A program made the translations under genes and the position numbers. This document shows positions 1,978 through 25,029 of a DNA stretch of 44,531 nt, piece after piece. The DNA lies in IMG/VR virus record IMGVR_UViG_3300031418_000028. The stretch is one strand, 5' to 3'. Every line of letters starts with the position of its first letter. Positions within the stretch are counted from its first letter, which is position 1. This stretch comes from a virus. The notes below the pieces were generated by a model, which had not been told where the DNA came from, made no database searches, and saw only the letters and a list, made by a program, of their open reading frames with translations.

Positions 1978-4422
1978 ATGGACTTAGAGCAGCGTCAGAT
2001 TAAGTTAGAGCAAGAGTACAGCACGCAGGGTGTGCTGGATGCATTTGCGCACTGGGAGAAAGAGCGCGATGCGGGACGCATGGCGGACACGCACATCGGA
2101 CGTACTTTAACTATTCGCCTGTACAAGCTGGTGCAGACCGAATTGGAAACAATCTGTACTGCTGGTACTCGTGGCGTTGGTGGTAAGTACCGCAACTTAA
2201 TCAAGGACGTGGGGTATGACCGCGCAGCTGTGGTCGCTATCCGCACCATCCTGCGACTGATTACCATGAAGCTGCGTGCTGACCGCACTGCACCTATCGT
2301 GCAGGATTTTGTCAGTGCTGCCGGTGAAATCATGAACATGGAGTACATGCACTTCTGCCTGCGTACCGCAGCGCCGGGGTACATGGCGCGTGTTGACCAG
2401 TACATGCAGGACAATAACACACGCTCAATCAATCACCGTAAGCGTACGCTGGTTGCCAGTGCCAATCGCATTGAAGGCGTAGAGCCTGACGACGTGCGTT
2501 GGGGCGTATCCGAGCAGAACGGCGTAGGCGGTATTCTACTGACTGCTATCCTGAATGCCGGTATTGCAGAGGCGCGTCACCTGCCTAAGAGTGGTGGACA
2601 GAGCTGGGTTGCTCTGTACCCAACGCCTGAAGTTGAGGCTAAGCTGCAAGAGCTGCTTCATAACATGCGTGCATTCATGAAGCAGCCACCAATGCTTGTC
2701 ACTCCTAAAGCACACACCCGCGATACATTATTCGGCAATGCATCGTACCTGACAGAGGAATTAGCTGCCTCTGCCCGTACTATCCACCTGCGTACCCGTA
2801 ACCGGCGCGACCTGAAAGATTGGATTCGTGCTAATATCTCGGACAGAGTATTACGTGCCGCTAATAAGGCGCAGAGTCAGCCATACCGTATCAACAAAGA
2901 ATTGGTGGGTATGCTGCGTGATATCTACAGCTCTGGTGTGTACAACGGTATCGCTGGTATCCCCAGCAACACCCCTATTACACCGCCGCCATACCCAATG
3001 TCAGAGGGTTGGGACAAGGAAGACCCGGAGTGTATTGAAGTGCATTCCGCATGGAAAGCTCTGGCTAAGGATGCGTACCGTGCCGAAGTTCAGCGCAAGG
3101 GGCATGTGCTCCAGTTCTCACTTATCACGAAGTATCTCAACACGTTCGGCGATGATACCCTGTACTTCCCCACGTACTTCGACTGGCGGGGCCGTTTGTA
3201 CTTCCGCTCCAGCATTAACCCGCAGGGCGCTGATTTCGTTAAGGCTGCTCTGGAGTTTGCGGATAAGAAGCCACTGGGCAAGCGCGGTCTGTACTGGCTC
3301 AAGGCCCATGTAGCCACTTGTTATGGATTCGACAAAGCGAACTTCGACACTCGCGCTGTGTGGACAGATACCCACATGGACCTCATCAGAGACGCTGTAA
3401 CGCACCACGTTGACTCCGAGTTCTTCCGGGGTGCAGATGCACACTGGTGCTTCTACGTCGCCGCTAAGGAGCTTGTACAGGCCTTAGATTCGGGTTCCCC
3501 AGAGACTTGGGAAACAGGTATTGCAGTAGCTATGGATGCAACATGCTCTGGTCTGCAACACTTGTCAGCTGTAATGCGTGACCCAATCGGAGGTATGTTC
3601 ACTAACCTGATGCCTAACAACGGTGTCGAGAAGGAGGATATCTACGCCGGTGTAGCGGCGCTTGCTGTCGTGAACATCCAAAAGGATAAGGAGAACCCAG
3701 AGCAGGCGCTGTTCTGGACTACGCACGGCATCCCGCGTAGCATGGCGAAGCGTCCGGTGATGACGTACACTTACGGCGGTACGCTCATGAGTTGCACAGA
3801 GTACGTGTACGTTGACATGCAGGACCGGGCACTACCGGGTATCGACAACTACAGCCCGTTCAAACTCGCTGCGTATGCCTCCAAGCATCTGCGTAAGGGT
3901 GTTGAGCAGACTGTACCTGCATCAGCCGAGTGTATGCGCTTCCTGCGCGATATAGCAAGTCGGATGCCGGTTACAGAGCCTCTGCGCTGGATTACACCTG
4001 CTGGATTCCCGGTAGTGCAGCACTACGCAGAAGAGACCTCCAGCGTCATCCGTCTGGATGCGTTGGGCATCACTGTAACTATGCGCCGCTTCGATGAGAG
4101 CCGGTTGCAGCGTAGCAAGTGTGTTAACGGTATCTCTCCGAACTTCACGCACGGGTTGGACTCCAGTCACCTCACTACGGTTATTGATGAGTCCGAGAGC
4201 AGTATCCTGCCAATTCATGATTCCTTTGGTACGTACCCAAGTGATGTGGATGCTATGCACGTAGTGCTTCGCAGGACGTTCTGTGACATGTATACCCAGC
4301 ACACACCATTGCAGAGTCTGGTGCAGTACGCCCAACCGTTCATTGAGGAAGAGATTGAGCTGCCAGCGGTCGGTAAGCTTGACATCTCTAAGGTGAAAGA
4401 CAGTCTATTCTTCATGTGTTAA
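1978..4422 (+). CDS. T7-type single-subunit DNA-dependent RNA polymerase (814 aa)
   Basis: MDATCSGLQH matches T7 DGSCSGIQH. RSMAKRPVMTYTYGGT matches T7 RSVTKRSVMTLAYGS. PIHDSFGT matches T7 HDSFGT. An SD gaggaa lies upstream. Confidence 0.97.
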   Translation: MDLEQRQIKLEQEYSTQGVLDAFAHWEKERDAGRMADTHIGRTLTIRLYKLVQTELETICTAGTRGVGGKYRNLIKDVGYDRAAVVAIRTILRLITMKLRADRTAPIVQDFVSAAGEIMNMEYMHFCLRTAAPGYMARVDQYMQDNNTRSINHRKRTLVASANRIEGVEPDDVRWGVSEQNGVGGILLTAILNAGIAEARHLPKSGGQSWVALYPTPEVEAKLQELLHNMRAFMKQPPMLVTPKAHTRDTLFGNASYLTEELAASARTIHLRTRNRRDLKDWIRANISDRVLRAANKAQSQPYRINKELVGMLRDIYSSGVYNGIAGIPSNTPITPPPYPMSEGWDKEDPECIEVHSAWKALAKDAYRAEVQRKGHVLQFSLITKYLNTFGDDTLYFPTYFDWRGRLYFRSSINPQGADFVKAALEFADKKPLGKRGLYWLKAHVATCYGFDKANFDTRAVWTDTHMDLIRDAVTHHVDSEFFRGADAHWCFYVAAKELVQALDSGSPETWETGIAVAMDATCSGLQHLSAVMRDPIGGMFTNLMPNNGVEKEDIYAGVAALAVVNIQKDKENPEQALFWTTHGIPRSMAKRPVMTYTYGGTLMSCTEYVYVDMQDRALPGIDNYSPFKLAAYASKHLRKGVEQTVPASAECMRFLRDIASRMPVTEPLRWITPAGFPVVQHYAEETSSVIRLDALGITVTMRRFDESRLQRSKCVNGISPNFTHGLDSSHLTTVIDESESSILPIHDSFGTYPSDVDAMHVVLRRTFCDMYTQHTPLQSLVQYAQPFIEEEIELPAVGKLDISKVKDSLFFMC

Positions 4423-8333: not shown

Positions 8334-9317
8334 ATGGCTGATACCCCTTATGCAAATGACTTGACTCGTATCCACTGGGCTGGTCAGAACTCGGATGTAG
8401 ATATCCACCTCGAAGTGTTTGAAGGCGACCTCGACTCTGGTTTCCTGTACAACTCATTCTTCCGCAGCAACTCTGGCTACATCAGCGTTCAGGACCGCTC
8501 TAACACAGCGCGTATCGACCGCATGAACACCGTGACCATTAAGGGTCGCCAGTCAGGTGAAGCTCTGGAACGTGAGAGCGTGAAGAACGACAAGCTGGTG
8601 GTGCAGGTGGATACCGTTACCTACGCTAGTACCGTAATGGACTGGCAGGATGACTGGACCTCACCAGACCGCTGGGCTGAGATTGGTCAGCAGCACGGTG
8701 CGCAGCATGCTCGTTCGTTCGACCAAGCGCACCTGATTCAGCTCATCAAGGCCCGTAAGTGGATTGCCCCGGCGCATCTGAAGCCAGCATTCTTCGACGG
8801 CAAAGAGTACACCGCTGCGTATGACGCGGACCGCTCTGTGTTCGCGGATAACATCATCGCTGCACACCGTCAGGGTATTGAGGAAATGGTTCGCCGTGAC
8901 CTCGGTGGCTCTCTGACCGAGTTCATCACCGTGGTATCTCCACGTGTGTTCGGTATCCTGCTGGATGCTGAGAAGCTGGTGAACGTGGACTACTCTGCGG
9001 GTAATGCGAACTTCGCACAGCGTCGTGTCGGTATGATTAACGGTGTCCGCATCGTTGAGAGTGCTCGATTCCCGACTGCTGCTGGTACACACCCACTGGG
9101 TGCTGCCTTTACCACTGATGCAGATGATGTTGCGTGCGAACTCGTAACGTACCATCCGAAGCTGACTCTGGTTACTGTTGAGGCCAAACCAATGACCACC
9201 AACAAGTACCCAGACAACCCGAACTTCTCTGACATCATGGACAGCTTCACGCTGTACAACATCGGTCAGCGTCGTCCAGATACCAGCTTCGCAGTGAAGC
9301 TCACCAACCTGCCGTAA
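8334..9317 (+). CDS. Major capsid protein (327 aa)
   Basis: Strong SD aggaga. Position after the scaffold gene. Tandem stops TAATAG followed by a hairpin terminator, as for T7 gene 10. Confidence 0.85.
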   Translation: MADTPYANDLTRIHWAGQNSDVDIHLEVFEGDLDSGFLYNSFFRSNSGYISVQDRSNTARIDRMNTVTIKGRQSGEALERESVKNDKLVVQVDTVTYASTVMDWQDDWTSPDRWAEIGQQHGAQHARSFDQAHLIQLIKARKWIAPAHLKPAFFDGKEYTAAYDADRSVFADNIIAAHRQGIEEMVRRDLGGSLTEFITVVSPRVFGILLDAEKLVNVDYSAGNANFAQRRVGMINGVRIVESARFPTAAGTHPLGAAFTTDADDVACELVTYHPKLTLVTVEAKPMTTNKYPDNPNFSDIMDSFTLYNIGQRRPDTSFAVKLTNLP

Positions 9318-9358: not shown

Positions 9359-9374
9359 GAATATTATTAACAAT

Positions 9375-9448
9375 AGCCCCTTAGTATATTGGTATTACAA
9401 CGGCTTCCAAACCCGTTGAAGTGGGTTCGATTCCCACAGGGGCTGCCA
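9375..9448 (+). tRNA. tRNA-Trp (anticodon CCA), 74 nt with encoded CCA end
   Basis: Hand-folded cloverleaf. Acceptor stem AGCCCCT/AGGGGCT. U8 A9. D arm GTAT-ATTGGTA-TTAC. Anticodon arm ACGGC-TTCCAAA-CCCGT, with a C31-C39 mismatch. Variable loop TGAA. T arm GTGGG-TTCGATT-CCCAC. Discriminator G, then CCA. A1-U72, G73 and the CCA anticodon match bacterial Trp identity elements. Confidence 0.8.
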
Positions 9449-9461
9449 AACAGGAGTAAAC

Positions 9462-10019
9462 ATGGAGCTACTAGATGCAGTAAACACCTGTCTCACTGCA
9501 CTAGGTGAGGCCCGTGTTACCAGCACAAGCACCCGACACCCGTCGGTAGACTTGGCTATCCAAAGTATTAACACCAAGAAGAAACTGCTGCAAGAGCGTG
9601 GTTGGTGGTTCAACACCTCGCGTGTGACCATGTACCCGGATACGCTCAAGCGCATTACCTACCCCGCCGGGGCCATAGCCATTAAAGGGGCTGATGGTTA
9701 TACTGTTTACAGTAAGCGCGGTGGGTACTTATTCAACAACACGGATAACACCGAACAGTTCGACGGACCTATCACGCTGTACGTGACCACGAATCTCGAC
9801 TTTGAAGACCTGCCAGAAAGCGCTGCAACAGTAGTGACTTATCAGGCAGCTCGTGAAATGTACGTGGGAGACCTCGGCAATGACTCCTCTGTATCTAACT
9901 TGGTACAGAATGAGCAGCAGGCTTCGTTACTAATGCAGGAACAACATTTACGCAATCAGAAGTACAACACACGCCGCCGCCGTCAATGGGGTCGGTACGT
10001 GGGTGCTCTGAACAACTAA
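9462..10019 (+). CDS. Tail tubular protein A (185 aa)
   Basis: Position and size correspond to T7 gp11. SD caggag. Confidence 0.75.
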   Translation: MELLDAVNTCLTALGEARVTSTSTRHPSVDLAIQSINTKKKLLQERGWWFNTSRVTMYPDTLKRITYPAGAIAIKGADGYTVYSKRGGYLFNNTDNTEQFDGPITLYVTTNLDFEDLPESAATVVTYQAAREMYVGDLGNDSSVSNLVQNEQQASLLMQEQHLRNQKYNTRRRRQWGRYVGALNN

Positions 10020-10028
10020 GGAGACTGT

Positions 10029-12359
10029 ATGGCCCAAGATGGCGCATTAAAGTCAATCATGCAGGGAGTGTCCCAACAAGTTCCCCGTGAGCGTCTGGAT
10101 GGGCAAGTCTCTGCACAGTTAAACAGATTATCAGATGTGGTGAATGGAAACCGCCGTAGGCCGGGTGCTCGTTACTTGGCTGAACTCGGGGTCACGTCCC
10201 AGTACGATAACCGTGTATTCGCAACGTACGCCGACGTAGGCGATGCTGCAAATCACATCATTGTGAACACGGAGACAGGTGAGCTGCGGGTACTAGCCGA
10301 AGATTTCGGCACAGTACTGCATGCATCTACCCAGAGCTATTTGGTGGCCTCTTCTGCGGCAGCATTACAGACGGCATCCCTTCGTGGGCACCTGTACATC
10401 GCTAATACCGAGAAAGCACCCGCCGTACTGCATGGCACAACTAACCAGAAGGACCCCAGTAAAACCGGGTTCCTGTTCGTGCTGACACCCGCCTTTGCAA
10501 AGGATTATGACGTAACTATATCCAATGCGGCGGGTACCTTCACGTACACTTACACTACGCCGAAAGGCACAGACCCGGACGATGCTAACCTAGCTAAACC
10601 CGCCTTTATTATCGGACAGCTGGCGGCGCTAATTAACACACACACGGCAACACGTGGGGTTTCAGCAAACCAGTATGAAGCGTACCTGTTTCTATCATCA
10701 ACTTCCGGGCCACTGGTTGTAAGTACCAACGCAGGTGCTACCTACATGATAGGCAGTAATAACTCCCGTGTGGCCTTGTCTACACAGCTCCCGGCGAGGC
10801 TGCCAGATATAGCAGATGGTATTCTGTGTGCTGTGGGAACATCATCCAAGAATTTTATATGGTATCAGTACTACGCATCCGAGGCAGTGTGGAAGGAGGC
10901 CGGTGCTTACGGCAGTCCAACTGGCTTGTCGAATATGCCCATCCGCATCTCTCTTGACGGTCTGTACACAGTGGAGACCCCCGCTTACGAAGGTAGGCTT
11001 GCTGGCTCAGATGACACGAACGAGGACCCCGGCTTTATCGAGAATGGTCTTACAGGCTTTGGTGCATTCCAAGGTAGGTTGGTCATTCTAGCCGGTCCAG
11101 AGGTCTGTATGAGCGCTGCCGGTAATCCACTACGCTGGTACAGAAGCACAGTCACATCCCTGCTCACCGAGGATAGCATTAATATCTACTCCGGTGCTGC
11201 TACGAGTACGAACTTCAGACATTGCGTGCAGTTTAACAAAGACCTGCTACTGTTCTCCCGGTCTTGTCAGGCAGTAATCCCTAGCGGCAATGCAGCGATT
11301 ACCCCGCAGACCGCACAGATTGTTATCACATCCTCGTACACAACAGATACTTTATCTCAGCCTACACCCGTGGGACGGTCCGTTCTGTACAGCATGCCAC
11401 GCACGGAGTCCTTTGCTGGTGTGCTGGAGCTAATACCGAGTAACACTACGGACTCTCAGTACACGTCCAACGATATTACCGCGCATATTCCCCGGTATCT
11501 TCCGGGTAGTATCCGCAGCATCACGGCAAGTACCACATCGAACTCCAGTCTGTTCATCTGCACCGGGGATAATCGAAGTGTGTTTCTGCAAGACTACTTG
11601 TGGTCCGGTGATGAGAAGGTACAGTCTGCGTGGCATCAGTGGACGCTACCGCACCCTGTGGCATGCGCATGGTTTGTTCGAGACCGCGTGTACATAGCGA
11701 TGAGGGATGGCACAAGTATGTACGTAGTCACCATAGAGCCACAGGCGGGTTTAACGCTGAATGCTCTGACACGACCATTCTCAGATGTGTACACTCAGGT
11801 AACGGTAAGTAACCGTGAGTTCACCCTGCCTCAACATCTACGTTCTATGTACTCAGCGGGAGTTTCTCTCCTACTGACGTTTGCTGATGGAGACATGGGC
11901 GGCATGGCTGCCGGTATCGAATCTGTGGATACTACGACGTGGGTTGTTACCACGGTGCGTAATGTTCCGAATGGACAGTACTTCGTGGGCACCAAGTACA
12001 GCTCTGTGCTTACACCTACGCCACCTCTTGTGCGTGACGCTAACGGCGTGGTGATTGGTACTAGTCGCACTATGCTGACGCGGTATGAGTTGACCCTGAA
12101 GGATTCTGGTGAGTTCCAAGCTACCATCACGGATAGCTCGCGTACACTCACAGATGGGACTTATAACAGTCTGGTGTACAGTAGCACAGAGTTGCTGCCG
12201 AACTCACCTACCGTAGCCTCACTGGGACGCTGTATCATCCCGGTGCGTGCGCAGGCACAGACGACTGTTGCTACCTTTGAAACGGATGAGGATAACGACT
12301 TATGTATCCTTGATATTGAGTACGTGCTACAGTACAGAGCCAGAAGGAGACGAGTATGA
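10029..12359 (+). CDS. Tail tubular protein B (776 aa)
   Basis: Position and size correspond to T7 gp12. TAAGGAG junction upstream. Confidence 0.8.
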   Translation: MAQDGALKSIMQGVSQQVPRERLDGQVSAQLNRLSDVVNGNRRRPGARYLAELGVTSQYDNRVFATYADVGDAANHIIVNTETGELRVLAEDFGTVLHASTQSYLVASSAAALQTASLRGHLYIANTEKAPAVLHGTTNQKDPSKTGFLFVLTPAFAKDYDVTISNAAGTFTYTYTTPKGTDPDDANLAKPAFIIGQLAALINTHTATRGVSANQYEAYLFLSSTSGPLVVSTNAGATYMIGSNNSRVALSTQLPARLPDIADGILCAVGTSSKNFIWYQYYASEAVWKEAGAYGSPTGLSNMPIRISLDGLYTVETPAYEGRLAGSDDTNEDPGFIENGLTGFGAFQGRLVILAGPEVCMSAAGNPLRWYRSTVTSLLTEDSINIYSGAATSTNFRHCVQFNKDLLLFSRSCQAVIPSGNAAITPQTAQIVITSSYTTDTLSQPTPVGRSVLYSMPRTESFAGVLELIPSNTTDSQYTSNDITAHIPRYLPGSIRSITASTTSNSSLFICTGDNRSVFLQDYLWSGDEKVQSAWHQWTLPHPVACAWFVRDRVYIAMRDGTSMYVVTIEPQAGLTLNALTRPFSDVYTQVTVSNREFTLPQHLRSMYSAGVSLLLTFADGDMGGMAAGIESVDTTTWVVTTVRNVPNGQYFVGTKYSSVLTPTPPLVRDANGVVIGTSRTMLTRYELTLKDSGEFQATITDSSRTLTDGTYNSLVYSSTELLPNSPTVASLGRCIIPVRAQAQTTVATFETDEDNDLCILDIEYVLQYRARRRRV

Positions 12360-12970
12360 TTTGGATGTTCGCCCAACTGGCTGCTCAAGCCATTCAGGGC
12401 AGTATGCAGTATCAGCAAGATATTAAGATGCAGAAGTTGCAGAACAAAGCGGACGAGGCCTATAACAAGGCCGTCCGCGCTGCCTCTGCCCGACAGATTA
12501 CCGAGATTAACTTACAGCGTACTGCTGCACGCCAGCAGACGTCACAGGCATTATCTGCGTCCCAGTCTCAAGCACTAGGTGAGCAGTCAAACCGTGGGCT
12601 ACAAGCAGCGGCAACTGACACAATGGGTGCTTCTGTAGCGCAGAACCTACAGGACGTAAATATCCAGCTTGACCAAGTAAGTAGTACCCTGATGCAGAAT
12701 GCTGCATATCAGGAACTCTCATTTGACTCGCAGGTGTACAACACGATTGACTCGGCACGTAATGCTGTCCGCGACCTCACGAGTCCATTAGGCTCGGACT
12801 ACGCGGCGCTGGGACAAGCGGTGGGTGCTGTAGGCACCAGCATGGTATCAAACAAACTATCAGGAAAAGGTTGGTTCGGTGGTGCCGGGGATTCCCAAGC
12901 ACCCGCTCCAGTCAGCCAGAGTACCGGGACTAAGACCCAGTACGGCCTGAGCACACGACTTAATTTATAA
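12356..12970 (+). CDS. Internal virion protein A (204 aa)
   Basis: ATGA overlap with the upstream gene. Gln/Ala-rich. Position and size correspond to T7 gp14. Confidence 0.65.
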   Translation: MIWMFAQLAAQAIQGSMQYQQDIKMQKLQNKADEAYNKAVRAASARQITEINLQRTAARQQTSQALSASQSQALGEQSNRGLQAAATDTMGASVAQNLQDVNIQLDQVSSTLMQNAAYQELSFDSQVYNTIDSARNAVRDLTSPLGSDYAALGQAVGAVGTSMVSNKLSGKGWFGGAGDSQAPAPVSQSTGTKTQYGLSTRLNL

Positions 12971-12979
12971 GGAGACAGT

Positions 12980-15688
12980 ATGCCGGTTAGACAACCAACC
13001 CAAGGTGGGCTGAACATTCCGGGCCTTTCGGGGTATCAGAGTGCCGGTGTTGCCTCCCCGGTGTACCGTGCCCCAGAGGCCCCCACAGAGAACACTTCCG
13101 AATTCTGGTCTGGACTATTACAGTCCGGTATGAAAGTAGCTGACGGTGCCGTACAGCAGGCGAGCGCACGTGCGTACTTACGTGGGCAGCAAGACAGCAT
13201 GCAGGGCCGCGAGAAGCAAGCCCAGAACTTCTTTACACAGGCAATGTATGAGCAGGGTTATAACAGTAGTTCTGTGAATACCGCCTTAGCGAAATTCCAG
13301 TTAGACATTCAGGGTAAGGCGCAGGAGTATGTGAACTCCGGCAAGACCCCCGAAGAATTCAATAGTTACGTATCCGAACAGACGAACGCGTTGCTGACCC
13401 AAGCCGGGTCACAGGGCATGAACCTAAATGATAAGGACTGGCAGAGCTGGTTAGGTCAGGTGGAGAACACGCGCAACACATCCGCGCAGTACTTCCAAGA
13501 CCAGAACTTAAAGCGTGCTAGTGTGTTGCAGGAGCAGAGCTGGGGTGCACGCGGTAACGCCGCACTCACCGAAGCAGGTACTGCCTTCAGTATGGGTAAC
13601 CCGCAGCAGGCTCTGGAGAATGTGAACGGGCATCTGAGCAGCATCTTTGCTGACCAGAGTATCTCCGCTGAGAACAAGATTAAGTTCAGCTCTCAGTTCA
13701 TGGTGAATGCCTTCGCTAACTCCGGTAACACCGGGGACATGACAGCCCTGACGTCATACATCCAGAACCTGAAAGAGTTCAAGGAACTGCCTACGGAGGT
13801 ACAGACAGCGGTCACAAACTCCGCCCAGCAGTACTACAATCAGCGTGCGTCCGATGAGAGTGTACAACTGTATGAGTACAATTCTAAGGTAGGCTCCGTA
13901 TCTGATATCAATGAGCTGAACCAAAGCTACCCTATGCCAGCATACATTAACACTGTGATGCAAGGCGTGCAGCAGCGTAAGCTCGCACCGGGTACTGGGT
14001 ATGCAATGATTGATGCCGAGGCTAACCGCAGGAACAAGTTGCAGAAGGCAGCCGACCAGACCCGTGCTTACACCACAGGTGTGACCATCTCAGATATCGC
14101 TACCCAGACAGGTGCTACGCCTGACAAGGTAGAGACAGAGATGACCAAGTTGTATGCTGCTCAGAACGGGGGTTACTCCGGCGGTGGGCTAGCGCTCATG
14201 CAGCGAGGTCTGCGCTCAGGCGCGCAGGATATGACCGGTGTCGGTATTAAGATGTTACAGCAGGATGCGCAGTCTCTGGCTAGTGTAGACTGGCGTAACC
14301 TCAAGACTGACTCAGAGGGCAAGCCCCTGTACCCGGCTACGGTTGTAGGCTCATTAACGAACTTACAGACCGCGTACAATGCCAGCATTGCTGCCGGTAA
14401 TCAGGTACAAGCGAATCAGCTTCTATCCGGCTTACCAGACCCAGTTGTGTACGGTATCCGACAGAATGTGGATGCCCGTGACTTGGCTGACGTAGTGGGT
14501 AAGCGAGCGAATGACATTGCCTCCGGTAAGGTTCTTGCTATGCCCGCTGATATGCCTAACGATTTGCGTGTGACACAGAGTGATGTGTCCGCCGGTCTGT
14601 TTGACTTTGGTATTGGCAAGGATGCACGCAACAGGAACCTATTAGGTATTCAGTCGTGGGTATTCAGTTCGGATGCAGATGAGAAGGCAGCTCAAGCACG
14701 TGTTACCCAGATTAACAGCGCTATCAGTAATGAGTACGTGTACAACCAGCAGCGTGGGTCTTTACCTGCATTGTCTGGGGATGACATGAAGTCATGGCTG
14801 ATGGGCAAGGTAGCTAGCAGAACCGTACGCGTGAGTGATGGTTCCGATAATGGAGCCTTACTGGTACTTCCAGAAGTGGGAGACAAGCAGAAGGTGTTCG
14901 GTACAGCAGATAACGGTATCATCGGCACTGCCTTGCAGGAGAGCGTTGCTAACTTCCGTAAGCAGTACCCGCAGGCCACTACAGTAAATATGGACTACGA
15001 CCCGTTTACCCAAGAGATTGTGTTCTCTGGTGTAAATGGGGAGAATCAGATTGGCACCGTATCCCAGACAGTAGCAGCAGCGGACTTCCGCAACTCCGTA
15101 CGCGGCGTACAGAACAATCTGACCAACGGTGGCGCTGGTGCTACGCAGGGTAATCTTGCGGTGCCGGGTGCGGGCTTCGTAACGTTTGATGCGGCTAACG
15201 CAGCTGGCGTACAGAAGAACGTGTACATGAATGCTGTGAACCGTCTGGTGTCTTACGAGGGCTATACCCCCGCCAAGGGCTTCAGTATCCTTGATACGCA
15301 TCCGACCACAGGTGCTCCGCTGAATGAGGCGAAGTACGTGAAGCAGCCGGGTGATTCAGCGCAGGTCGCAGCTTCCAAGCTGAGTCTGTACCTGAATGAC
15401 AAGGTACTGCCGCAGGTGATGCCTAAGATGGACCAGTACAAGCAGCTTCCGGGGTACTTGCAGAATGCTATCTTCGACTCTCTGGTGGAGACAACATACC
15501 ACTCAGGGAACTCTGATGCGTTCAATAAGTACGTGAATGAAGCATTGTACGGAGACACTCAGAAACTGGCAGAGTTTAACCAGAGTCCGTTGTTCAAGGA
15601 TGCAGGTGCGAACTCCCGGCGTAACAGAGACCGCTATCAACTACTAGGCGCACTGGTTCAGTACCGTGCTCAGCAAATTAAAAATTAA
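12980..15688 (+). CDS. Internal virion protein B (902 aa) with a C-terminal lysozyme-like domain
   Basis: Position corresponds to T7 gp15 and phiKMV gp36. The C-terminal roughly 150 aa (VSYEGYTPAKGF...ETTYHSGNSDAFNKY) resemble a phage lysozyme domain. Confidence 0.7.
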   Translation: MPVRQPTQGGLNIPGLSGYQSAGVASPVYRAPEAPTENTSEFWSGLLQSGMKVADGAVQQASARAYLRGQQDSMQGREKQAQNFFTQAMYEQGYNSSSVNTALAKFQLDIQGKAQEYVNSGKTPEEFNSYVSEQTNALLTQAGSQGMNLNDKDWQSWLGQVENTRNTSAQYFQDQNLKRASVLQEQSWGARGNAALTEAGTAFSMGNPQQALENVNGHLSSIFADQSISAENKIKFSSQFMVNAFANSGNTGDMTALTSYIQNLKEFKELPTEVQTAVTNSAQQYYNQRASDESVQLYEYNSKVGSVSDINELNQSYPMPAYINTVMQGVQQRKLAPGTGYAMIDAEANRRNKLQKAADQTRAYTTGVTISDIATQTGATPDKVETEMTKLYAAQNGGYSGGGLALMQRGLRSGAQDMTGVGIKMLQQDAQSLASVDWRNLKTDSEGKPLYPATVVGSLTNLQTAYNASIAAGNQVQANQLLSGLPDPVVYGIRQNVDARDLADVVGKRANDIASGKVLAMPADMPNDLRVTQSDVSAGLFDFGIGKDARNRNLLGIQSWVFSSDADEKAAQARVTQINSAISNEYVYNQQRGSLPALSGDDMKSWLMGKVASRTVRVSDGSDNGALLVLPEVGDKQKVFGTADNGIIGTALQESVANFRKQYPQATTVNMDYDPFTQEIVFSGVNGENQIGTVSQTVAAADFRNSVRGVQNNLTNGGAGATQGNLAVPGAGFVTFDAANAAGVQKNVYMNAVNRLVSYEGYTPAKGFSILDTHPTTGAPLNEAKYVKQPGDSAQVAASKLSLYLNDKVLPQVMPKMDQYKQLPGYLQNAIFDSLVETTYHSGNSDAFNKYVNEALYGDTQKLAEFNQSPLFKDAGANSRRNRDRYQLLGALVQYRAQQIKN

Positions 15689-15696
15689 GGAGATGT

Positions 15697-18600
15697 ATGA
15701 TTCACTTACGCCCGGACAGTACAGCTTACGCTAATGTCAAAGAAGCAGCTCCGGCTGTGGGTGGGTTCGTCACTCCCGACAACACTGCGTTGGAGGGGGC
15801 GAACCCCTCCGCGCTGGTGCAGGCAATGCAAACGCCTAAAGCCAGCATTACAGACTCATTCAAAGCCACACTGCAAGAGAGCCTCGCGGCTAAGGCGCTT
15901 CGTGGTATGGATTACCTGAGTATCCCCTCTGAGGACGGCTTCAACGTCAGTCAGGCTTTGGGAGAATCTGTGTCGCAGTACACAGCAGATGAATTAGAGT
16001 TTCTTGCCGACGCACGCAGTAACTCCGAGTTACAGCAGCGCCGTGGGCAGGTACAGTCTACGAGGGACAACTACAGTGCGATGGGACAGAACATGCTTAC
16101 TACCGTGGCTGCATCTATGCTTGACGTGGATATGGTCATCGGGGGTGGTGTTGGTGCACTCAGTAAACTTACCCGTGCTACACGCTTGGCTATTGGCCTC
16201 AGCGCTAACGCTGGGGTACTTAGCTTGGCTTCACAAGGTGGGACTGTTACGCCGCTTGATGTTGTGGGTACGAGCGTTGGTGTAGCCCTTAGTGCTATTC
16301 CCGGCGTCCGTCGCGCAGCGCAAGCAGCGGAACGTGTCAATCCAGAGGCCGCTGTAGCTGCTGAGAAGGCCGCTGTTAACACGGCAGCCGAAGCTACCCC
16401 AACTGTACAGGCAGCGTCTGATGTAGCCGCACAAGTTATCCCAGAGCGCCCTGTGGTACGTACTGTACCAGATGAGGACTATCCTAAGATTAAGTTAGAT
16501 ACGTACTCGAACAAACCGCATGTAGAAGTGGGTGTATCTCGGAAAGCAGGCGATGCTCCTGAGTTAGTCACTACCGTACAGAATGCTGTCCGTGCCGTCG
16601 TTGGCTTAGCTGATGATTTGCCACCGGAAGTACGTGCACTGGGGCGGGCTTTGTCATCTTCACTCGATGCAGAATCGGACATGCCGCTTGTTATTCGCAA
16701 GGCCACTGCTGACGCAAGACGCCCTGCTTCCAAGGCAGAGCGTTCCTTCGCCCGTGCTGAGGTGGATGGTTCCGCATCTGTACAGATTCTGGGTAACACG
16801 CCAGCTAACTCGCTGAGTGAGCACATCCAAGGTCTGAGTACCTACAACAAAACAGTTATTCTCCACGAGGCTTCCCATGCTAAAACCATGCAGAGCATCC
16901 GGGCAGTAGAGGCCGGTCGAGTAACATCCGGTCCCGTGTATGATGCTGTGAAGCGTATTGGTGAAATCCGTGCTCATGTACTAGACAATCTACCCACACA
17001 AACTGGTAAAGCAGCGCGTGACACTGCATATGCTGTGCGGAATGACCACGAGTTCCTATCCCAGTTATTCAACTCTGAGAAGTTCCGTGCTGACCTGAAA
17101 GGCATCAAGATGCAGGGTGGTAACGTGTTCTCTGAAATGGTGCGCCATGTAGTGTCGTTGTTCACTGGCAAAGCTCCAACAGGCTCTGCATTTGATGAGA
17201 CGGTTGCTGCATTTGAGAACCTGCTCTCACTGCCTAGCGTAGGACGTGAAGTGTTTACTCGACAGGCACGTGAGATGCCGGACCTAGCATCCCCTGTGTT
17301 ACATGCACCTGATGTTCAACAGATGAACTCCAAGGTGATGGGTGCGCTGAACCGTAACTTCAGCCTGTACGAGCGCTTAGCATCATACGGCCCTAAAGCT
17401 AGTGTGTTAGCTGACCAGCTCGTTGTGGACGCTACTGGTACCTCAGCGAACTCAGCAGCGCACTATGCGCGTGCTGCACACCTAGCATCGAATACCAGCA
17501 TTGTGCAGGTAGACTCCGCACTGGCGCAAGCCATGAGCGCAGACTGGCCTCTGATGCAGCGTATGCGCCATCCAAAGGCGTATCGTGATGCACAGCGTGA
17601 CCTGAGCGCTAAGGTGTACCAGCAGCTCGCAGATAACCATGAGCGACACCTGTCAGGCAGGGCTATCCAGCCTAACAATGACCCCCGTGTTAATGCCATC
17701 ACCGATGCCTTCCAGAAGTCTGGTTGGGCAGAGCATGAGTTGGCTGCACTACGCGAAGCCGGTGTACCGGGTGCAGCAGATATCCCAAGTTCACCTTGGT
17801 ATCTGCCACGTCGTCACAGCGGTGACAAGCTGAACAACTTCATGCGTGAGAACCCAGATGTAACTGCGGATGATATCCGTGCTATGTACACCGACCAGTT
17901 CCGCACGATGTTTGCCAGTCGTGGTATTGAAGAAGCTACAGCTAAGAAGCTTGGTGCTAAGATGTACCAGAACCTCCAAGATAAAGCCTCCCACGTTGGT
18001 GGGTACCGTCAGAGTATTGTCGGCATGGACTTGGATGAGGTTCAGGATATCCTACGCGCACTCGGTGCAGAAGACAGCACTATTACCAGTTTCATTGATG
18101 ACCTGAGCAATGCAGGAGAAGCGGCTAACAAGGTTCGGAACTTACGTCACCGTGTAGAATTCGACACGACGCGGGAGTACCAGACTAAATCTGGCAAGTT
18201 AATCTCCCCTAGTATGTTCATCAACAATGATGTAATGGGTCTGATGGAAGGCTACAGCCGTAACATGGCTGGCCGTGTTGGTCTTGCTAAAGCAGGCTAC
18301 CCCGACCTCCGCCAGCTCACCAAAGCCATTGACAATGCGGCTGCTGAAAGCCCTAACGCCCGTGAGGCAGTTCGGGACATGGACAACACCGTTAATCAGT
18401 TACTCGGTTATCCTACCGGCGAGGACGTTCCTGACATTCTTCGGAGTGCCAGTATCCTTGGTGGCGCGTTGAACCTTGCTAACTCCGGTGTGTACCAGTT
18501 AGCGGACCTTGGTCTGCAGTTACAGCAGTTCGGCTTTGCCAAGACGTTAAAGGCTCTGACAAGCACCCAGTTCGGTCGAGATGCACTTGAGGTAGCTCGC

Positions 18601-19491
18601 TCAGCTGAGTACGGCTCTCGCCTTAGAGACGTGCTGGAGGCCCGTAACGTGCTTTCTGGCAAGTACCGCAGTGTACTCACGCATTTGGACGACAACCGTG
18701 ATATTGGAAGCATGGGCTTTGCACACCGGTACGTTCAGCATCTGGGACAAAGCACACGCTTTGTGAACGGCATGGAATTCATTCGTCGTGGACAGTCTAA
18801 GATGGTGGCCGGTTTGATTGCTGACTCTGTAGATGACGCTATCGCTGGTAATGCCAAGGCGGTTGAATCTCTACGTCGGTTCGGTCTGCACGACGACCTG
18901 TTGAACCGTTTACGGACGGCTACACAGAGTAACCCTGACATGCGTACGTGGCCTGATAGTGTACGCGTAGAGGTCGAGTCAGTAGCTCACAACATGGCTG
19001 ACGCATTGGTGCTGGAGAATCGTCTGGGTGAGATTCCCGGCTGGATGCAGTTCAGTTCAGTGGGTAAGGTTGTACTGCCGTACATGACATTCGTAGCGGG
19101 TACGTGGAACAAGATTCTACGCCGTACAGCGAAGTTAGACGGGGCGACCGGTGTGGCTATGGCTATGGCATACCAGATGCCACTGACAACCTTAGCAGCA
19201 GCTACAAGCATGGGACTGGGCAACCAGAAGATGACCCCCGAAGCATTGGTGGCTAAGACCATCACGCAGATTCCTATGATGAGTTGGCTGGGTACTGCGG
19301 TTGATATGACCGTTAATGGACCTACCAACAGCATCGCTGCACTGTCCATCGTGGATAAGATGCACTCCGCAATGTCAGGTATCTCACGTGGTGAAGTTAA
19401 TCCAGAGAGCGTAATTAAGGCTGTACCATTCCTGAGCATTCTGCCGGGTATGCGCCTAATGGGTGCGAGTATGGCAGATGATGATGAATAA
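15697..19491 (+). CDS. Internal virion protein C / ejection protein (1264 aa)
   Basis: Largest ORF in the window. Position and size correspond to T7 gp16. Confidence 0.75.
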   Translation: MIHLRPDSTAYANVKEAAPAVGGFVTPDNTALEGANPSALVQAMQTPKASITDSFKATLQESLAAKALRGMDYLSIPSEDGFNVSQALGESVSQYTADELEFLADARSNSELQQRRGQVQSTRDNYSAMGQNMLTTVAASMLDVDMVIGGGVGALSKLTRATRLAIGLSANAGVLSLASQGGTVTPLDVVGTSVGVALSAIPGVRRAAQAAERVNPEAAVAAEKAAVNTAAEATPTVQAASDVAAQVIPERPVVRTVPDEDYPKIKLDTYSNKPHVEVGVSRKAGDAPELVTTVQNAVRAVVGLADDLPPEVRALGRALSSSLDAESDMPLVIRKATADARRPASKAERSFARAEVDGSASVQILGNTPANSLSEHIQGLSTYNKTVILHEASHAKTMQSIRAVEAGRVTSGPVYDAVKRIGEIRAHVLDNLPTQTGKAARDTAYAVRNDHEFLSQLFNSEKFRADLKGIKMQGGNVFSEMVRHVVSLFTGKAPTGSAFDETVAAFENLLSLPSVGREVFTRQAREMPDLASPVLHAPDVQQMNSKVMGALNRNFSLYERLASYGPKASVLADQLVVDATGTSANSAAHYARAAHLASNTSIVQVDSALAQAMSADWPLMQRMRHPKAYRDAQRDLSAKVYQQLADNHERHLSGRAIQPNNDPRVNAITDAFQKSGWAEHELAALREAGVPGAADIPSSPWYLPRRHSGDKLNNFMRENPDVTADDIRAMYTDQFRTMFASRGIEEATAKKLGAKMYQNLQDKASHVGGYRQSIVGMDLDEVQDILRALGAEDSTITSFIDDLSNAGEAANKVRNLRHRVEFDTTREYQTKSGKLISPSMFINNDVMGLMEGYSRNMAGRVGLAKAGYPDLRQLTKAIDNAAAESPNAREAVRDMDNTVNQLLGYPTGEDVPDILRSASILGGALNLANSGVYQLADLGLQLQQFGFAKTLKALTSTQFGRDALEVARSAEYGSRLRDVLEARNVLSGKYRSVLTHLDDNRDIGSMGFAHRYVQHLGQSTRFVNGMEFIRRGQSKMVAGLIADSVDDAIAGNAKAVESLRRFGLHDDLLNRLRTATQSNPDMRTWPDSVRVEVESVAHNMADALVLENRLGEIPGWMQFSSVGKVVLPYMTFVAGTWNKILRRTAKLDGATGVAMAMAYQMPLTTLAAATSMGLGNQKMTPEALVAKTITQIPMMSWLGTAVDMTVNGPTNSIAALSIVDKMHSAMSGISRGEVNPESVIKAVPFLSILPGMRLMGASMADDDE

Positions 19492-19500
19492 GGAGAGAGC

Positions 19501-21024
19501 ATGTATTCAGTACAGATTCAAGTATCCGATGGCACGTTGTCAGTAATCAACGTGTCTATTGAGTACTTTGCTCGGGAAGACATTACACTGTACAAGAACT
19601 TGGGGACCACTCCCCTCGTTCTTGGGACAGATTGGGAATGGGATACCGACACACGCATTAACCTATTGACTAGTGTTCCTGTGCCCGAAGATGAGTACAT
19701 CACTGTGCGCAGGAACACTAACAAAGACCGGGCATATAACATCTACGATGGTAATGCCCCGTTCAGCCGAGAAACGTTGGACGAGAACTTTAAGCAGATG
19801 ATTTATCTTGCTCAGGAGTTCACCGAGGGCAACGGACTTACAGGCCTGTTCTTCCCGCTGGACATGAACGGGTTCCAGATTCATAACTTGGGTAAAGGCA
19901 CCGCAGCAGCGGATGCTGTGAACAAAGGGCAGTTAGACGTGGTGGACAACCGTGTATCCAGCTTGGAGAATGCGGTGGACACTACCAGTACCAGTTATCC
20001 GTGGTACACGATTGTTACTGGTACAGCACAGGATACGTTCACCCCACCCGTACCATTCGTGAAGGCATCCGTATATCTTGATGGCATCTGTCAGGTGCCA
20101 GATTACAGCTTCGTTGTGGTCGATGACAAAATTATGCTGGCAGAGGCTGTCCCAGTTGGTACGGTAGTATTTGCCCGGCTCGGTGAAGAGTTTGAGAATG
20201 CTTCCGATGTAGCAACTGCTGAGGCACTAATGCAGGTGCGTGCTGAGTTGCTAGCTAGGATTGAGTTGCTTGAAGAAGAGTACGATAATCTTGGTCCCAG
20301 AGTTACTACTGCTGAGTCGGATATTGATGCACTACAAACTGGGCAGACAACCCTACAGAGTAGGGCTAGTGCACTGGAGCTACGGGCGACTAACCTTGAG
20401 ACCCGTATGACCATAGAGGAGAATGCAGTGCAATCGGTAGCCCTTGGTGGTACCGGAGGCACTACTGCTGCACAGGCGCGCACCAACTTAGGAGCGGCAC
20501 CCGTAGCATCTCCGACATTCACCGGTATTCCTGCAGCGCCAACAGCAAGTGCAGGAACCAACACCACACAACTGGCTACTACCGCATTTGTAACATCTGC
20601 CATCACGGCTGCCGACACCGGTGTTGTTAATGGCTCCAATGCCGCCGCCGGTAGGGTTGGTGAGTACGTTGAGGCGCTGGGTACAGCAGGCATCACACTA
20701 GCAAATGGCACAGTCACTAACATGGTGAGCCTTACGTTGGGGGCAGGTGACTGGGAAATTGATGGCATGATTGCAACTGATACCACTAACGCTGCTTATG
20801 CTTCTGTCGTCAGTGGTATCAGTACAACCGCCACAACAATCCCAACATTCCCGAACCGTTGGCAATTGGCAGTTGGATTAACCGCTATCGCCCAGCACTT
20901 TCCGGTGCCAAAACGCAGGGTCAGTATAACTGCAAGCACCACTTATTACCTAACACTGTCAGTGGGCTTCACTTCCGGCTCCTGTACAGGACAGGGTTTC
21001 ATTAGAGCACGTCGCATTCGTTAA
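19501..21024 (+). CDS. Tail fiber protein (507 aa), mosaic
   Basis: The N-terminal roughly 110 aa follow the T7 gp17 adaptor pattern. A coiled-coil middle follows. The motif SPTFTGIPAAPTASAGTNTTQLATTAFV is as in P2 H and lambda Stf-type fibers. Confidence 0.85.
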   Translation: MYSVQIQVSDGTLSVINVSIEYFAREDITLYKNLGTTPLVLGTDWEWDTDTRINLLTSVPVPEDEYITVRRNTNKDRAYNIYDGNAPFSRETLDENFKQMIYLAQEFTEGNGLTGLFFPLDMNGFQIHNLGKGTAAADAVNKGQLDVVDNRVSSLENAVDTTSTSYPWYTIVTGTAQDTFTPPVPFVKASVYLDGICQVPDYSFVVVDDKIMLAEAVPVGTVVFARLGEEFENASDVATAEALMQVRAELLARIELLEEEYDNLGPRVTTAESDIDALQTGQTTLQSRASALELRATNLETRMTIEENAVQSVALGGTGGTTAAQARTNLGAAPVASPTFTGIPAAPTASAGTNTTQLATTAFVTSAITAADTGVVNGSNAAAGRVGEYVEALGTAGITLANGTVTNMVSLTLGAGDWEIDGMIATDTTNAAYASVVSGISTTATTIPTFPNRWQLAVGLTAIAQHFPVPKRRVSITASTTYYLTLSVGFTSGSCTGQGFIRARRIR

Positions 21025-21033
21025 GGAGGTACT

Positions 21034-21321
21034 ATGGCAGCATCACAGGGTGCTTTAGGTGAACTTCACCAGATGTTAGCAGAGGTGCTGCTAGATGACT
21101 TGAAACAATCCAAGGCGGAGGGTATTCCATTGCCCGCCGCTAACTTGGGTGTCATCAGACAGTTCCTTAAGGATAATGAGATTACAGCTACCGTGGACGC
21201 AGATGATATGCGCAGACTGCGCGAGGAATTCCAGACGGACCTAGCTGGTAAGCGTGCAGAGCGCAGGGCGAACTTAACGCAGGCATTGGATGATGACGCG
21301 TACTCAGTGATTCTACAGTAA
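21034..21321 (+). CDS. Terminase small subunit (95 aa)
   Basis: Position directly before the large terminase gene, and size comparable to T7 gp18. Confidence 0.65.
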   Translation: MAASQGALGELHQMLAEVLLDDLKQSKAEGIPLPAANLGVIRQFLKDNEITATVDADDMRRLREEFQTDLAGKRAERRANLTQALDDDAYSVILQ

Positions 21322-21330
21322 GGAGATACA

Positions 21331-23148
21331 ATGCAGGAGCGTAAGCTGCGAAGATTAACCATGATTGCAAACAGCATTCGTGAGTGGGCAGACCGCCCTG
21401 CTAGTATGCCCGCTGATTTACGGGAAGAGTACGGGTACATGATGCAGGCCGTGTTCAGTGAGTTTGAAGACTTCGCTGACCTCGGTATGCGCTTCCTCGG
21501 ATTTGACCTCACTGATATGCAGCGGGACATTGCCCGGTACATGCAGTACGGTCCGCGGCTGAGCATGGTGGCAGCCCAGCGTGGTGAGGCAAAGAGTACC
21601 CTAGCAGCACTGTTTGCTGTGTGGTCACTCATTCAAGACTGGGACCATCATATACTGATTGTGTCCGGAGGTGAGGCTCAGGCATCTGAGGTCGCATCGT
21701 TGGTCATCCGTATCATTGAGCAGTGGAGTATCCTGTGCTACTTACGGCCTGATAAGAGCCGCGGTGACCGTACATCGTATGAGCACTATGATATCCACGT
21801 AGACCTCAAGCCTATCAACAAATCACCTAGTGTGGCTTGTGTAGGTATTACAGCATCATTGCAGGGTAAACGTGCTAAGCTGCTTATCCCGGACGATATT
21901 GAGACTACGAATAACGGACTTACTGCATCCAGCCGTGAGACGCTGCTGTTACGCTCGAAGGAGTTCGCGGCAATCAACACGCACGGCAAGATTCTGTACC
22001 TCGGTACACCCCAGACTAAGGACAGTATTTACCGCACACTGGTGGGCCGTGGTTACGAGATGCGTATCTGGCCCGGACGTGTACCTACCCCAGAGGAAGA
22101 GCAGCGCTACGGTGCTACACTGGCCCCGTATATTCTGGATATGATTCAGGCGGGTGTTGCTCGGACTGGCTTCGGTATAGATGGTAAGCGTGGCCCAGTG
22201 ACAGACCCGCAGCGCTACTCTGAGAAAGATTCGGATGAGAAGGAACTGGACTTTGGACCGGAAGGCTATCAACTACAGTACATGCTGGATACCAGCCTGT
22301 CTGATGCCCAGCGTACCCGCATTAAGCTCTCAGACGCTATTGTAGCGGCATTAGGGACCGATGCTGCACCAGACACCTTGTATTATGCAGCGGCCCCACA
22401 GAATCGCGTACAGAGCGTTCCTGACGTTATTAGTCAGGAGATTCTGTATAATGTAGCAGGCACCGGTAGTATGATGCTTCCGTACCAGCACAAGGTTATG
22501 ATTGTGGACCCGGCAGGTAATGGTGGGGATGAGGTAGCATTCGCATGTGGCGGAGCACTGAACTCGTACATACACCTGTTCGGGGTGGGTGGATTACAGG
22601 GTGGGCTGATTGAAGAGAACTGTAATCAGCTTATTGACTACTGTGAAGAGTTCGGCATCACCGATATCGTTATGGAATCGAACATGGGTCACGGTACAGC
22701 AAGTATGGTCTTGCTGAACGTACTGGCTAAAAGGAAGTTACCCGGCATAGGTGTGCGTGATATCTATGCTAAAGGACAGAAGGAGCGGCGTATCATTGAT
22801 ACACTGAGCCCAGTGTTCCGACGTCATAAGTTCGTAATCCACGAGCGAGCTATTGAGATGGATGCGGAATACTACAACCGCTACAGTCGAGATAAGCGCG
22901 CACTGTACTCACTGTTCTTCCAGTTGGCTGGCATCACCTACGACCGCGGTTCCCTTGCTAAAGATGACCGCGCTGATGCTGTTGCACATCTGGTTAATGA
23001 ACTCAAAGGCTTCATCAGTGTTGATGAAGATAAGGAGGCACAGAAAGAACAGGATAAACTCGTCAAGGCGTTCCTCGCCAACCCTATGGGGTACACCAAC
23101 CAGAATACCCGTAGGCCCATCCGGGGCACACGGCACAGACTACACTAA
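21331..23148 (+). CDS. Terminase large subunit (605 aa)
   Basis: ATPase-like AAQRGEAKST and LLIPDDIE (Walker B-like). Size and position correspond to T7 gp19. Confidence 0.85.
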   Translation: MQERKLRRLTMIANSIREWADRPASMPADLREEYGYMMQAVFSEFEDFADLGMRFLGFDLTDMQRDIARYMQYGPRLSMVAAQRGEAKSTLAALFAVWSLIQDWDHHILIVSGGEAQASEVASLVIRIIEQWSILCYLRPDKSRGDRTSYEHYDIHVDLKPINKSPSVACVGITASLQGKRAKLLIPDDIETTNNGLTASSRETLLLRSKEFAAINTHGKILYLGTPQTKDSIYRTLVGRGYEMRIWPGRVPTPEEEQRYGATLAPYILDMIQAGVARTGFGIDGKRGPVTDPQRYSEKDSDEKELDFGPEGYQLQYMLDTSLSDAQRTRIKLSDAIVAALGTDAAPDTLYYAAAPQNRVQSVPDVISQEILYNVAGTGSMMLPYQHKVMIVDPAGNGGDEVAFACGGALNSYIHLFGVGGLQGGLIEENCNQLIDYCEEFGITDIVMESNMGHGTASMVLLNVLAKRKLPGIGVRDIYAKGQKERRIIDTLSPVFRRHKFVIHERAIEMDAEYYNRYSRDKRALYSLFFQLAGITYDRGSLAKDDRADAVAHLVNELKGFISVDEDKEAQKEQDKLVKAFLANPMGYTNQNTRRPIRGTRHRLH

Positions 23149-23157
23149 GGAGATACA

Positions 23158-23346: not shown

Positions 23347-23356
23347 GGAGAAGTAA

Positions 23357-23773: not shown

Positions 23774-23782
23774 GGAGATAAT

Positions 23783-25020: not shown

Positions 25021-25029
25021 GGGGAATAA

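Follow-up and report, generated by a model that had tools for sequence, protein, structure and literature searches.

tRNA-Trp between the capsid and tail genes

The IMG/VR virus record IMGVR_UViG_3300031418_000028, a stretch of 44,531 bp analyzed over its whole length (the window), contains a gene for a tryptophan transfer RNA (tRNA-Trp) with the anticodon CCA. The gene is located between the genes for the major capsid protein and the tail tubular protein A (Table 1), as a first-pass annotation of this DNA had described; tblastn and a match to PF17212 bore out both neighbours. ARAGORN detected it as the single tRNA of the window and assigned the isotype that had been claimed. The Rfam model RF00005 matched positions 9375-9445 over its full length (1-71 of 71) with 59.0 bits, above the gathering score of 29 (E 2.3e-10), so that the model and an independent finder both place the gene in the tRNA family. 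It is a whole gene and not a 3' fragment. The cloverleaf represents the minimum-free-energy fold (-27.6 kcal/mol, z -2.97), and 1 of 200 shuffled sequences was equally stable. The element is very probably a real, functional tRNA gene.

Table 1. Features of the window around the tRNA-Trp gene and nucleotides of the tRNA discussed in the text.
Feature	Position	Strand	Basis or remark
RNA polymerase gene	1978-4422	+	immediately before the structural genes; same place in PhiM1
Major capsid protein gene, ends TAA TAG	8334-9317	+	tblastn, 84-88% amino acid identity to Corkvirinae capsids (Pectobacterium, Dickeya phages)
Terminator-like hairpin, 10-bp stem and 4-nt loop	9335-9358	+	followed by U-rich tail GAAUAUUAUU to ~9368
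16-nt spacer / 5' leader	9359-9374	+	end TTAACAAT common to other tRNA-occupied slots (slot sequence comparison)
tRNA-Trp(CCA), 74 nt, encoded CCA end	9375-9448	+	ARAGORN, Rfam RF00005, cloverleaf fold
U11-A24	9385/9397		
U13·U22	9387/9395		
C31·C39	9404/9412		
U32	9405		
Anticodon	9407-9409		
G73	9445		
CCA end	9446-9448		
Shine-Dalgarno AGGAG of tail tubular A	9452-9456	+	begins 4 nt past the CCA end of the tRNA
Tail tubular protein A gene	9462-10019	+	63-69% amino acid identity to Corkvirinae tail tubular A; PF17212 Tube

The elements named in the first-pass annotation were all read in the sequence: a complete cloverleaf, the T arm GTGGG-TTCGATT-CCCAC with the motif GGTTCGATTCC, the encoded CCA end, the anticodon loop TTCCAAA, the discriminator G73 and an A1-U72 pair. 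The set of universal tertiary nucleotides is complete (U8, A14, G18, G19, A21, U33, G53, T54, T55, C56, A58 and C61; position 17 is absent in the numbering applied). The identity set of the Escherichia coli tryptophanyl-tRNA synthetase (TrpRS) comprises G73 and the CCA anticodon as major elements and the first acceptor pairs A1-U72, G2-C71 and G3-C70 as minor ones (PMC2965240). The window tRNA-Trp possesses both major elements and the first two pairs; the third is C3-G70, not G3-C70, so the proposed agreement with the bacterial identity set holds up to this pair. Two non-pairs were marked in the stems by cmscan, U13·U22 in the D stem and C31·C39 in the anticodon stem. The former had been overlooked, together with a variable loop of 4 nt and a possible A26-U44 pair that would lengthen the anticodon helix at its top. 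Independent Logan and ENA assemblies of this phage agree completely (100% identity) over 4 kb including the tRNA gene and therefore offer no variation or covariation within the lineage.

The slot and its cargo in related phages

The intergenic slot between the capsid stop codon and the start codon of tail tubular A is empty, with 53-71 nt, in about 25 Corkvirinae. Its length is 59 nt in at least 13 Phimunavirus species, 53 nt in Ekidair and 65-71 nt in Kotilavirus. Three of four environmental relatives have an empty gap of 54-56 nt; the fourth (L193) shows an empty slot of the Phimunavirus type on a contig that ends before the gap can be measured. The gap of 144 nt in the window accommodates the tRNA-Trp. 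In PhiM1 it spans 172 nt and contains, exactly at the slot, a single atypical tRNA-Ile(UAU). The contig IMGVR_UViG_3300003973_000004 carries a tRNA-Tyr(GUA) (56 bits) in a gap of 155 nt, and Dickeya phage BF25/12 a structured insert of about 51 nt in a gap of 130 nt. Pectobacterium phage Peat1 harbors an HNH homing endonuclease followed by a short piece duplicated from the N terminus of tail tubular A (L487 1441-2201); its capsid gene is annotated as two overlapping coding sequences. The slot of the more distant Pseudomonas phage Ep4 (L488 2297-2850) is filled by about 554 nt of unannotated sequence without a tRNA, with an open reading frame (ORF) of 102 amino acids at 2448-2756. Conservation of the locus thus extends to the slot and the hairpin upstream of it, while the contents vary and are missing in most relatives. 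As the slot of relatives holds other tRNAs, an HNH endonuclease or nothing, the tRNA-Trp represents a swappable accessory cargo. No description of this polymorphism (three tRNA identities, HNH endonuclease, possible remnant, nothing) was found in the literature consulted.

The three slot tRNAs have the same boundaries. A leader ending in TTAACAA and either T or C precedes the mature 5' end, and the encoded CCA is followed by A(A/TT)CAGGAG ahead of the ATG. Pairwise identity among the Trp, Tyr and Ile tRNAs is just 47-58%. In all three, the canonical anticodon stem is held together by just four Watson-Crick pairs, a state found in 5.6% of bacterial tRNAs (PMC13092985). The open pair is A31·A39 in the Ile-like tRNA of PhiM1; in the slot tRNA-Tyr (L003 2429-2445), cmscan marked A27·G43 at the top of the stem.

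The slot is the only large spacer of the late operon, the others measuring 8-10 nt. It is the one place that tolerates an insertion, and repeated occupancy is therefore explicable without a site-specific mechanism. A metagenome scan with the capsid protein yielded three loci, none with a tRNA. The AT-rich junction 16-mer TGAATATTATTAACAA proved uninformative as a probe of IMG/VR, where it matched 119 unrelated contigs. A recent tRNA swap between the tRNA-Tyr contig and PhiM1 is not supported at an identity of about 80% over 5.5 kb, with just about 35 nt of the flank being close.

The tRNA of PhiM1 is located between phiM1-38 (capsid) and phiM1-39 (tail tubular A), in the same slot and with the same boundaries as in the window. 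The single tRNA has been published without an assigned function (PMC5377504, PMC6115819). Both phages belong to the same subfamily and carry a sole tRNA with the identical T arm GTGGGTTCGATTCCCAC and a 31·39 mismatch. The PhiM1 tRNA differs from that of the window in its anticodon UAU, A73 and a variable arm of 29 nt, and is 58% identical. It was missed by ARAGORN and scored below the gathering threshold of the Rfam tRNA model. The annotated tRNA-Ile of PhiM1 (25840-25940; L002 3503-3603) and a homologue in Arno162 (L202 2495-2596) form a conserved atypical phage tRNA family. The stem of the 29-nt variable arm covaries, AACAC/GTGTT in PhiM1 and GTCAC/GTGGC in Arno162, around the constant loop CAGATAA. 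Unrelated phages of Vibrio, Escherichia, Klebsiella and Pectobacterium contain homologues with 73-83% identity; Rfam gives just a sub-threshold match to transfer-messenger RNA (tmRNA) ends for this family.

The insert of BF25/12 (L001 3521-3562) consists of a 9-bp outer stem and an inner hairpin (-20.1 kcal/mol, z -3.2). Its last letters are GCACCA, and AACAATAACAAG stands before it. A search of RNA families gave no match for the insert, which may be what an internal deletion has left of an earlier slot tRNA.

Origin of the gene

The window tRNA-Trp is most closely related to that of PM2, a T4-like Pectobacterium phage (Mosugukvirus), with 79-81% identity. The two share an identical D arm (including U13·U22 and U11-A24), A1-U72, G73 and the encoded CCA end, and their T arms are similar. 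The PM2 gene differs in a paired anticodon stem (G31-C39), in C32·C38 and in a G27·U43 wobble pair, and adjoins other tRNA genes. A blastn search of the window tRNA-Trp against 5,426 E. coli genomes gave no match. By these comparisons, the gene is to be regarded as phage-type rather than a copied host gene, gained horizontally from the phage tRNA pool.

Neither a Tyr-Ile(UAU)-Trp array, as in locus L164, nor the Pectobacterium Ounavirinae phages (Arno162) could be established as direct donor, no near-identical donor being found. The best candidates reached 81% for the Trp tRNA and 89% for the Tyr tRNA, and Arno162 holds an Ile-like homologue. In viral arrays, tRNA-Trp genes of the mismatch type often adjoin tRNA-Tyr(GUA) and/or tRNA-Ile(UAU) (L164 1000-1239; L145, L137, L173, L143). 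The order in L164 is Tyr-Ile(UAU)-Trp with 1-nt spacers; in the Corkvirinae slot, the same three identities are found one at a time. On an IMG/VR contig of 362,763 bp (L172 1220-1475, L179 2525-2779; L249), three genes stand side by side: one that resembles a tRNA but has the 4-base anticodon taag, an 84-nt tRNA-Trp(CCA) whose variable arm is long and whose anticodon arm is of the host type, and a tRNA-Trp of the mismatch type. The contig has a tmRNA gene as well.

The tRNA may have entered from a co-infecting large phage by illegitimate recombination and persist as a near-neutral passenger, with no meaningful function or as an incidental RNase P site. The finding would then be ordinary. Such an origin is in line with the unrelated cargo of the slot (tRNAs of low identity, the HNH endonuclease, the possible remnant in BF25/12) and with the sporadic occupancy. 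The tRNA-Trp is, however, intact in its tertiary nucleotides, TrpRS identity set and CCA end, where decay would leave damage of the kind that BF25/12 may show. T7-like genomes are compact and packaging-limited, and all three tRNA cargos have exact mature 5'-to-CCA boundaries and a shared leader. This explanation is judged improbable.

The anticodon arm and the U11-A24 pair

The exact 17-nt anticodon arm of the window, ACGGC-UUCCAAA-CCCGU, was present in 49 IMG/VR contigs, 46 of which contained tRNA-Trp calls with this arm (48 calls). These tRNAs are unrelated to one another in the acceptor, D and T arms, and the majority of their genes belong to multi-tRNA arrays. In the genomes of 185,579 species the 17-mer occurred 65 times; just eight matches were tRNA-Trp genes, seven of them within 500 nt of another tRNA. 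The 65 matches were rejected as proof of the arm in bacteria, since chance alone would give about 69 when both strands of 596 Gb are searched. Once positions 31 and 39 were allowed to vary, the combinations in real tRNA-Trp genes were A-U (35), A·C (26), C·C (15), U-A (3) and U·G (1), and neither G-C nor C-G (0).

A less biased viral sample, in which only U33-A38 and the T loop were fixed, comprised 92 distinct tRNA-Trp. Twelve of them have a 31·39 mismatch (A·C in eight, C·C in two, C·U in two), with C39 in 10 of the 12. The corresponding "bottom-unpinned" tRNA-Trp of bacteria number 267 of 38,615 (Fakih et al. 2026, PMC13092985). This amounts to an odds ratio of 21.5 (p 3e-12) between a viral sample collected with ARAGORN by a search pattern of this study and a published bacterial census made with tRNAscan-SE. 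Within the viral sample, mismatch and U32 tend to occur together (odds ratio 27). The combination U31-A39 and C32, taken here to be the host state from the tRNA-Trp of E. coli and Bacillus subtilis, is found in 73% of the viral tRNA-Trp; the window has C31·C39 and U32. In the literature consulted, a description of the viral enrichment of 31·39-mismatched, U32-linked tRNA-Trp arms was not found.

The first-pass annotation had singled out the C31·C39 mismatch as deserving attention. The mismatch is present, and cmscan treats it as a non-pair; it is not peculiar to this gene. As far as sequence comparison tells, C31·C39 is a recurrent, virus-enriched class trait of tRNA-Trp and not a defect, and the 31·39 mismatch appears to be under selection.

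The U11-A24 pair had been pointed out as the state created by the Hirsh mutation G24A, which raises UGA read-through by tRNA-Trp(CCA) (PMC13092985). This pair is likewise present. It is the majority state of the viral sample (58 of 92, 63%), so that its presence in the window does not discriminate, and it looks like a mutant only against E. coli. In bacterial tRNA-Trp, U11-A24 is common as well (PMC13092985).

Tryptophan demand and UGA read-through

No increased demand for tryptophan was apparent in the window. Trp accounts for 1.27% of all codons, compared with 1.40% in PhiM1 and 1.27% in the tRNA-less PP16, and the capsid protein contains five Trp residues in each of the three phages. In late genes, UGG occurs at 9.6 per 1000 codons in the window, 10.1 in PhiM1 and 10.4 in PP16. 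The early and middle genes of the window reach 16.2. The statement that codon-usage compensation offers no obvious rationale is in agreement with these values, whereas the suggested boost of UGG decoding late in infection left no usage signature.

A simple supply boost would not require depletion or defence: host tRNA-Trp would be scarce, and phage copies would speed UGG decoding late. In E. coli, tRNA-Trp is encoded by a single-copy gene. The frequent presence of tRNA-Trp in the arrays of large phages and the position in the late operon, which would lead to expression alongside the structural proteins, fit this explanation. The late genes, however, are Trp-poor, and tRNA-less orthologues are equal in Trp. 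The empty-slot relatives have the same proteome composition without a tRNA, and the conserved non-host anticodon arm is left unexplained. A supply boost is considered unlikely.

The tRNA-Trp might also decode UGA, A24 and a 4-bp anticodon stem letting the CCA anticodon read this codon and resulting in read-through or tolerance of in-frame UGA. The U11-A24 pair of the window tRNA and a canonical anticodon stem with just four Watson-Crick pairs agree with this possibility. So do published read-through gains, which have been reported for G24A and for anticodon stems opened at the top; C27A in E. coli tRNA-Trp raised read-through about 2.5-fold (PMC13092985). The window tRNA, however, has its non-pair at 31·39, the lower end of the stem, instead of 27·43 at the upper end, and the bottom class was set aside in that study. 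The potential A26-U44 pair may restore a helix of 5 bp, and A24 is the majority viral state.

The tRNA-Trp(CCA) of the Blastocrithidia-like type, whose stem has 4 bp, resembles the window tRNA in the CCA anticodon and the four Watson-Crick pairs. It is defined by an open 27·43, a 7-nt loop and the absence of A9C and G24A (PMC13092985). In the window, A27-U43 is paired, 31·39 is open and A24 is present, pairing with U11, which places its tRNA outside this definition.

The genomes gave no indication of UGA decoding. UGA stops are not avoided, with 19 of 53 stops in the window (36%), 18 of 55 in PhiM1 and 18 of 56 in PP16. In all three phages, late genes end nearly always in UAA. The sole UGA of a structural gene belongs to the ATGA overlap ending tail tubular B and is also found in PP16; the in-frame extensions behind it comprise 72, 10 and 49 codons in the three phages and are not conserved in length. 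Among viral contigs, the share of UGA stops was 32.8% with a mismatched-stem tRNA-Trp and 33.8% with a paired stem (p 0.67), and reading UGA as a sense codon added equal ORF coverage in both groups. The UGA read-through that had been called conceivable is thus unsupported, and a UGA-decoding role of the window tRNA-Trp is very unlikely. Descriptions of such negative UGA and Trp-usage controls were not found in the literature consulted.

Transcription and processing

The terminator-like hairpin behind the capsid gene has a free energy of -18.5 kcal/mol (z -5.2), and none of 200 shuffled sequences was as stable. It is kept in all relatives examined, with compensatory changes in the stem which identify it as a real RNA structure. 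The last base of the stem lies 16 nt before the tRNA, in accordance with the start 17 nt after the hairpin given in the first-pass annotation. This spacer has no room for a promoter, hence the tRNA-Trp depends on read-through of the terminator, as had been anticipated. Nor is there space for a separate promoter in front of the downstream tail genes; transcription must therefore read through the hairpin, and the tRNA would be part of the same transcript. The hairpin probably stops transcription only partially.

In the empty slots of Phimunavirus, a sequence following the hairpin, GATAATACTAACTATAGGAGGCACA (CB5 L128 1875-1904 and others), loosely resembles the T7-class promoter core, taken here to be TAATAC...CACTATAGG. 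Neither the window nor Kotilavirus has the motif, and the resemblance may be a coincidence.

Late transcription in T7-like and phiKMV-like phages is performed by a phage-encoded RNA polymerase. From the anatomy of the locus, late transcription of the window would partly pass the capsid terminator and yield a read-through transcript with the tRNA and the tail genes. RNase P would then cut the 5' end, and 3' trimming would halt at the encoded CCA, leaving the 74-nt tRNA. By analogy with tRNA-mRNA co-transcripts such as that of the E. coli tufB operon, the mRNA of tail tubular A would start just before its Shine-Dalgarno sequence.

The phage genome

The window genome is assigned, on protein similarity, to a new lineage of Corkvirinae-like, phiKMV-like podophages. 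All genes are on the + strand. At the DNA level, the capsid gene alone reaches about 80% identity to relatives. Tail tubular A is the first gene of a closely packed operon for tail and internal-virion proteins. The late operon (10019-25030) is extremely compact; the TAA of nearly every gene overlaps the next Shine-Dalgarno sequence (TAAGGAG), a layout common to PhiM1 and PP16. The published relative CB5 lacks integrase, excisionase and repressor (PMC6115819). The tailspike had no tblastn match among GenBank phages, and Pfam revealed a pectate-lyase-like fold only, so that it gave no clue to the host. Judging from the related phages, the host probably belongs to the Enterobacterales.

Proposed function

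The mature tRNA would presumably be charged by the host TrpRS, given G73, the CCA anticodon and the pairs A1-U72 and G2-C71, and would read UGG. Its selective value may consist in maintaining UGG decoding when the host tRNA-Trp is depleted or cut, whether host RNA decays or a defence or toxin attacks tRNAs. With C31·C39 and U32, the arm is not of the host type and would plausibly be accepted poorly by any factor that recognises the host arm. The phage isoacceptor does differ from the presumed host state in the region that a nuclease of this kind would recognise. Insurance against the loss of host tRNA-Trp is preferred because of the missing demand-side signature, the Trp/Tyr/Ile/none polymorphism of the slot and the virus-enriched non-host anticodon arm. 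Replacement of a depleted or cleaved host tRNA-Trp had already been proposed in the first-pass annotation; it is retained as the best hypothesis, strengthened by the slot polymorphism and the arm, and its probability is put a little short of even.

Several points weigh against insurance. To our knowledge, no Trp-specific anti-phage tRNase has been described in Enterobacterales. An eLife paper on the evasion of anticodon nucleases makes no mention of Trp. Most relatives thrive without a tRNA, so any benefit is conditional or small. The late genes of PhiM1 contain 5.1 AUA per 1000 codons, about three times the 1.7 of PP16 (window, 3.3), and its Ile(UAU) cassette may therefore be a codon compensation; the cargos of the slot need not share one function. 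The enrichment of the mismatch relies on the two differently collected samples described above.

In a more specific and rather doubtful version, the slot would be an exchangeable single-tRNA counter-defence cassette whose identity tracks the tRNA nucleases of local hosts, with the mismatched arm as adaptive escape. A 31·39 A·C, C·C or C·U, mostly with C39 and usually with U32, would evade a nuclease or a modification-dependent recognition of the host arm. In Salmonella, DNA damage leads to RecA-dependent cleavage in the anticodon loop and depletion of tRNAs, tRNA-Trp and tRNA-Tyr among others (PMC7790460). This SOS-induced activity, cutting tRNA-Trp and tRNA-Tyr after A36, is a candidate agent. 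The phage tRNA keeps A36-A37-A38, the Salmonella cut site, and an escape from that activity is consequently not obvious, a further point against a protective role.

Comparison with known systems

Phage tRNAs are common, and with the PhiM1 tRNA already published from the same slot, the window tRNA-Trp is ordinary in kind. Phage tRNAs are being recast as counter-measures to tRNA-targeting immunity, the known cases being Lys and Tyr tRNAs in large arrays. A single tRNA in a single slot of a 44-kb lytic podophage, with relatives carrying Trp, Tyr, Ile or nothing, offers a tractable test of the worth of one phage tRNA. The enriched 31·39-mismatched, U32-linked arm points to a selective agent acting on the anticodon arm of tRNA-Trp. 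The viral census also fills in the "bottom-unpinned" class set aside by the 2026 survey of 4-bp anticodon stems.

A phage tRNA-Tyr rescues infection from retron-Eco7 and a tRNA-Lys from PrrC (PMC11555353). PARIS is reported to be neutralised by a tRNA-Lys variant of T5 (PMC11464382). Mutations in the anticodon loop have been proposed to let phage tRNAs escape anticodon nucleases (PMC10264068). Toxins that deplete tRNA-Trp have been reported from Mycobacterium tuberculosis. The counter-defence tRNAs of the T5 type, Tyr against PtuAB of retron-Eco7 and Lys against PARIS and PrrC, are isoacceptors that restore decoding after destruction of the host tRNA, some with anticodon-arm differences that avoid cleavage. 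The window resembles them in that a relative holds a tRNA-Tyr in the same slot. T5-type tRNAs are organized in large arrays with strong promoters of their own, whereas the tRNA-Trp of the window is a single gene behind a terminator in a 44-kb podophage.

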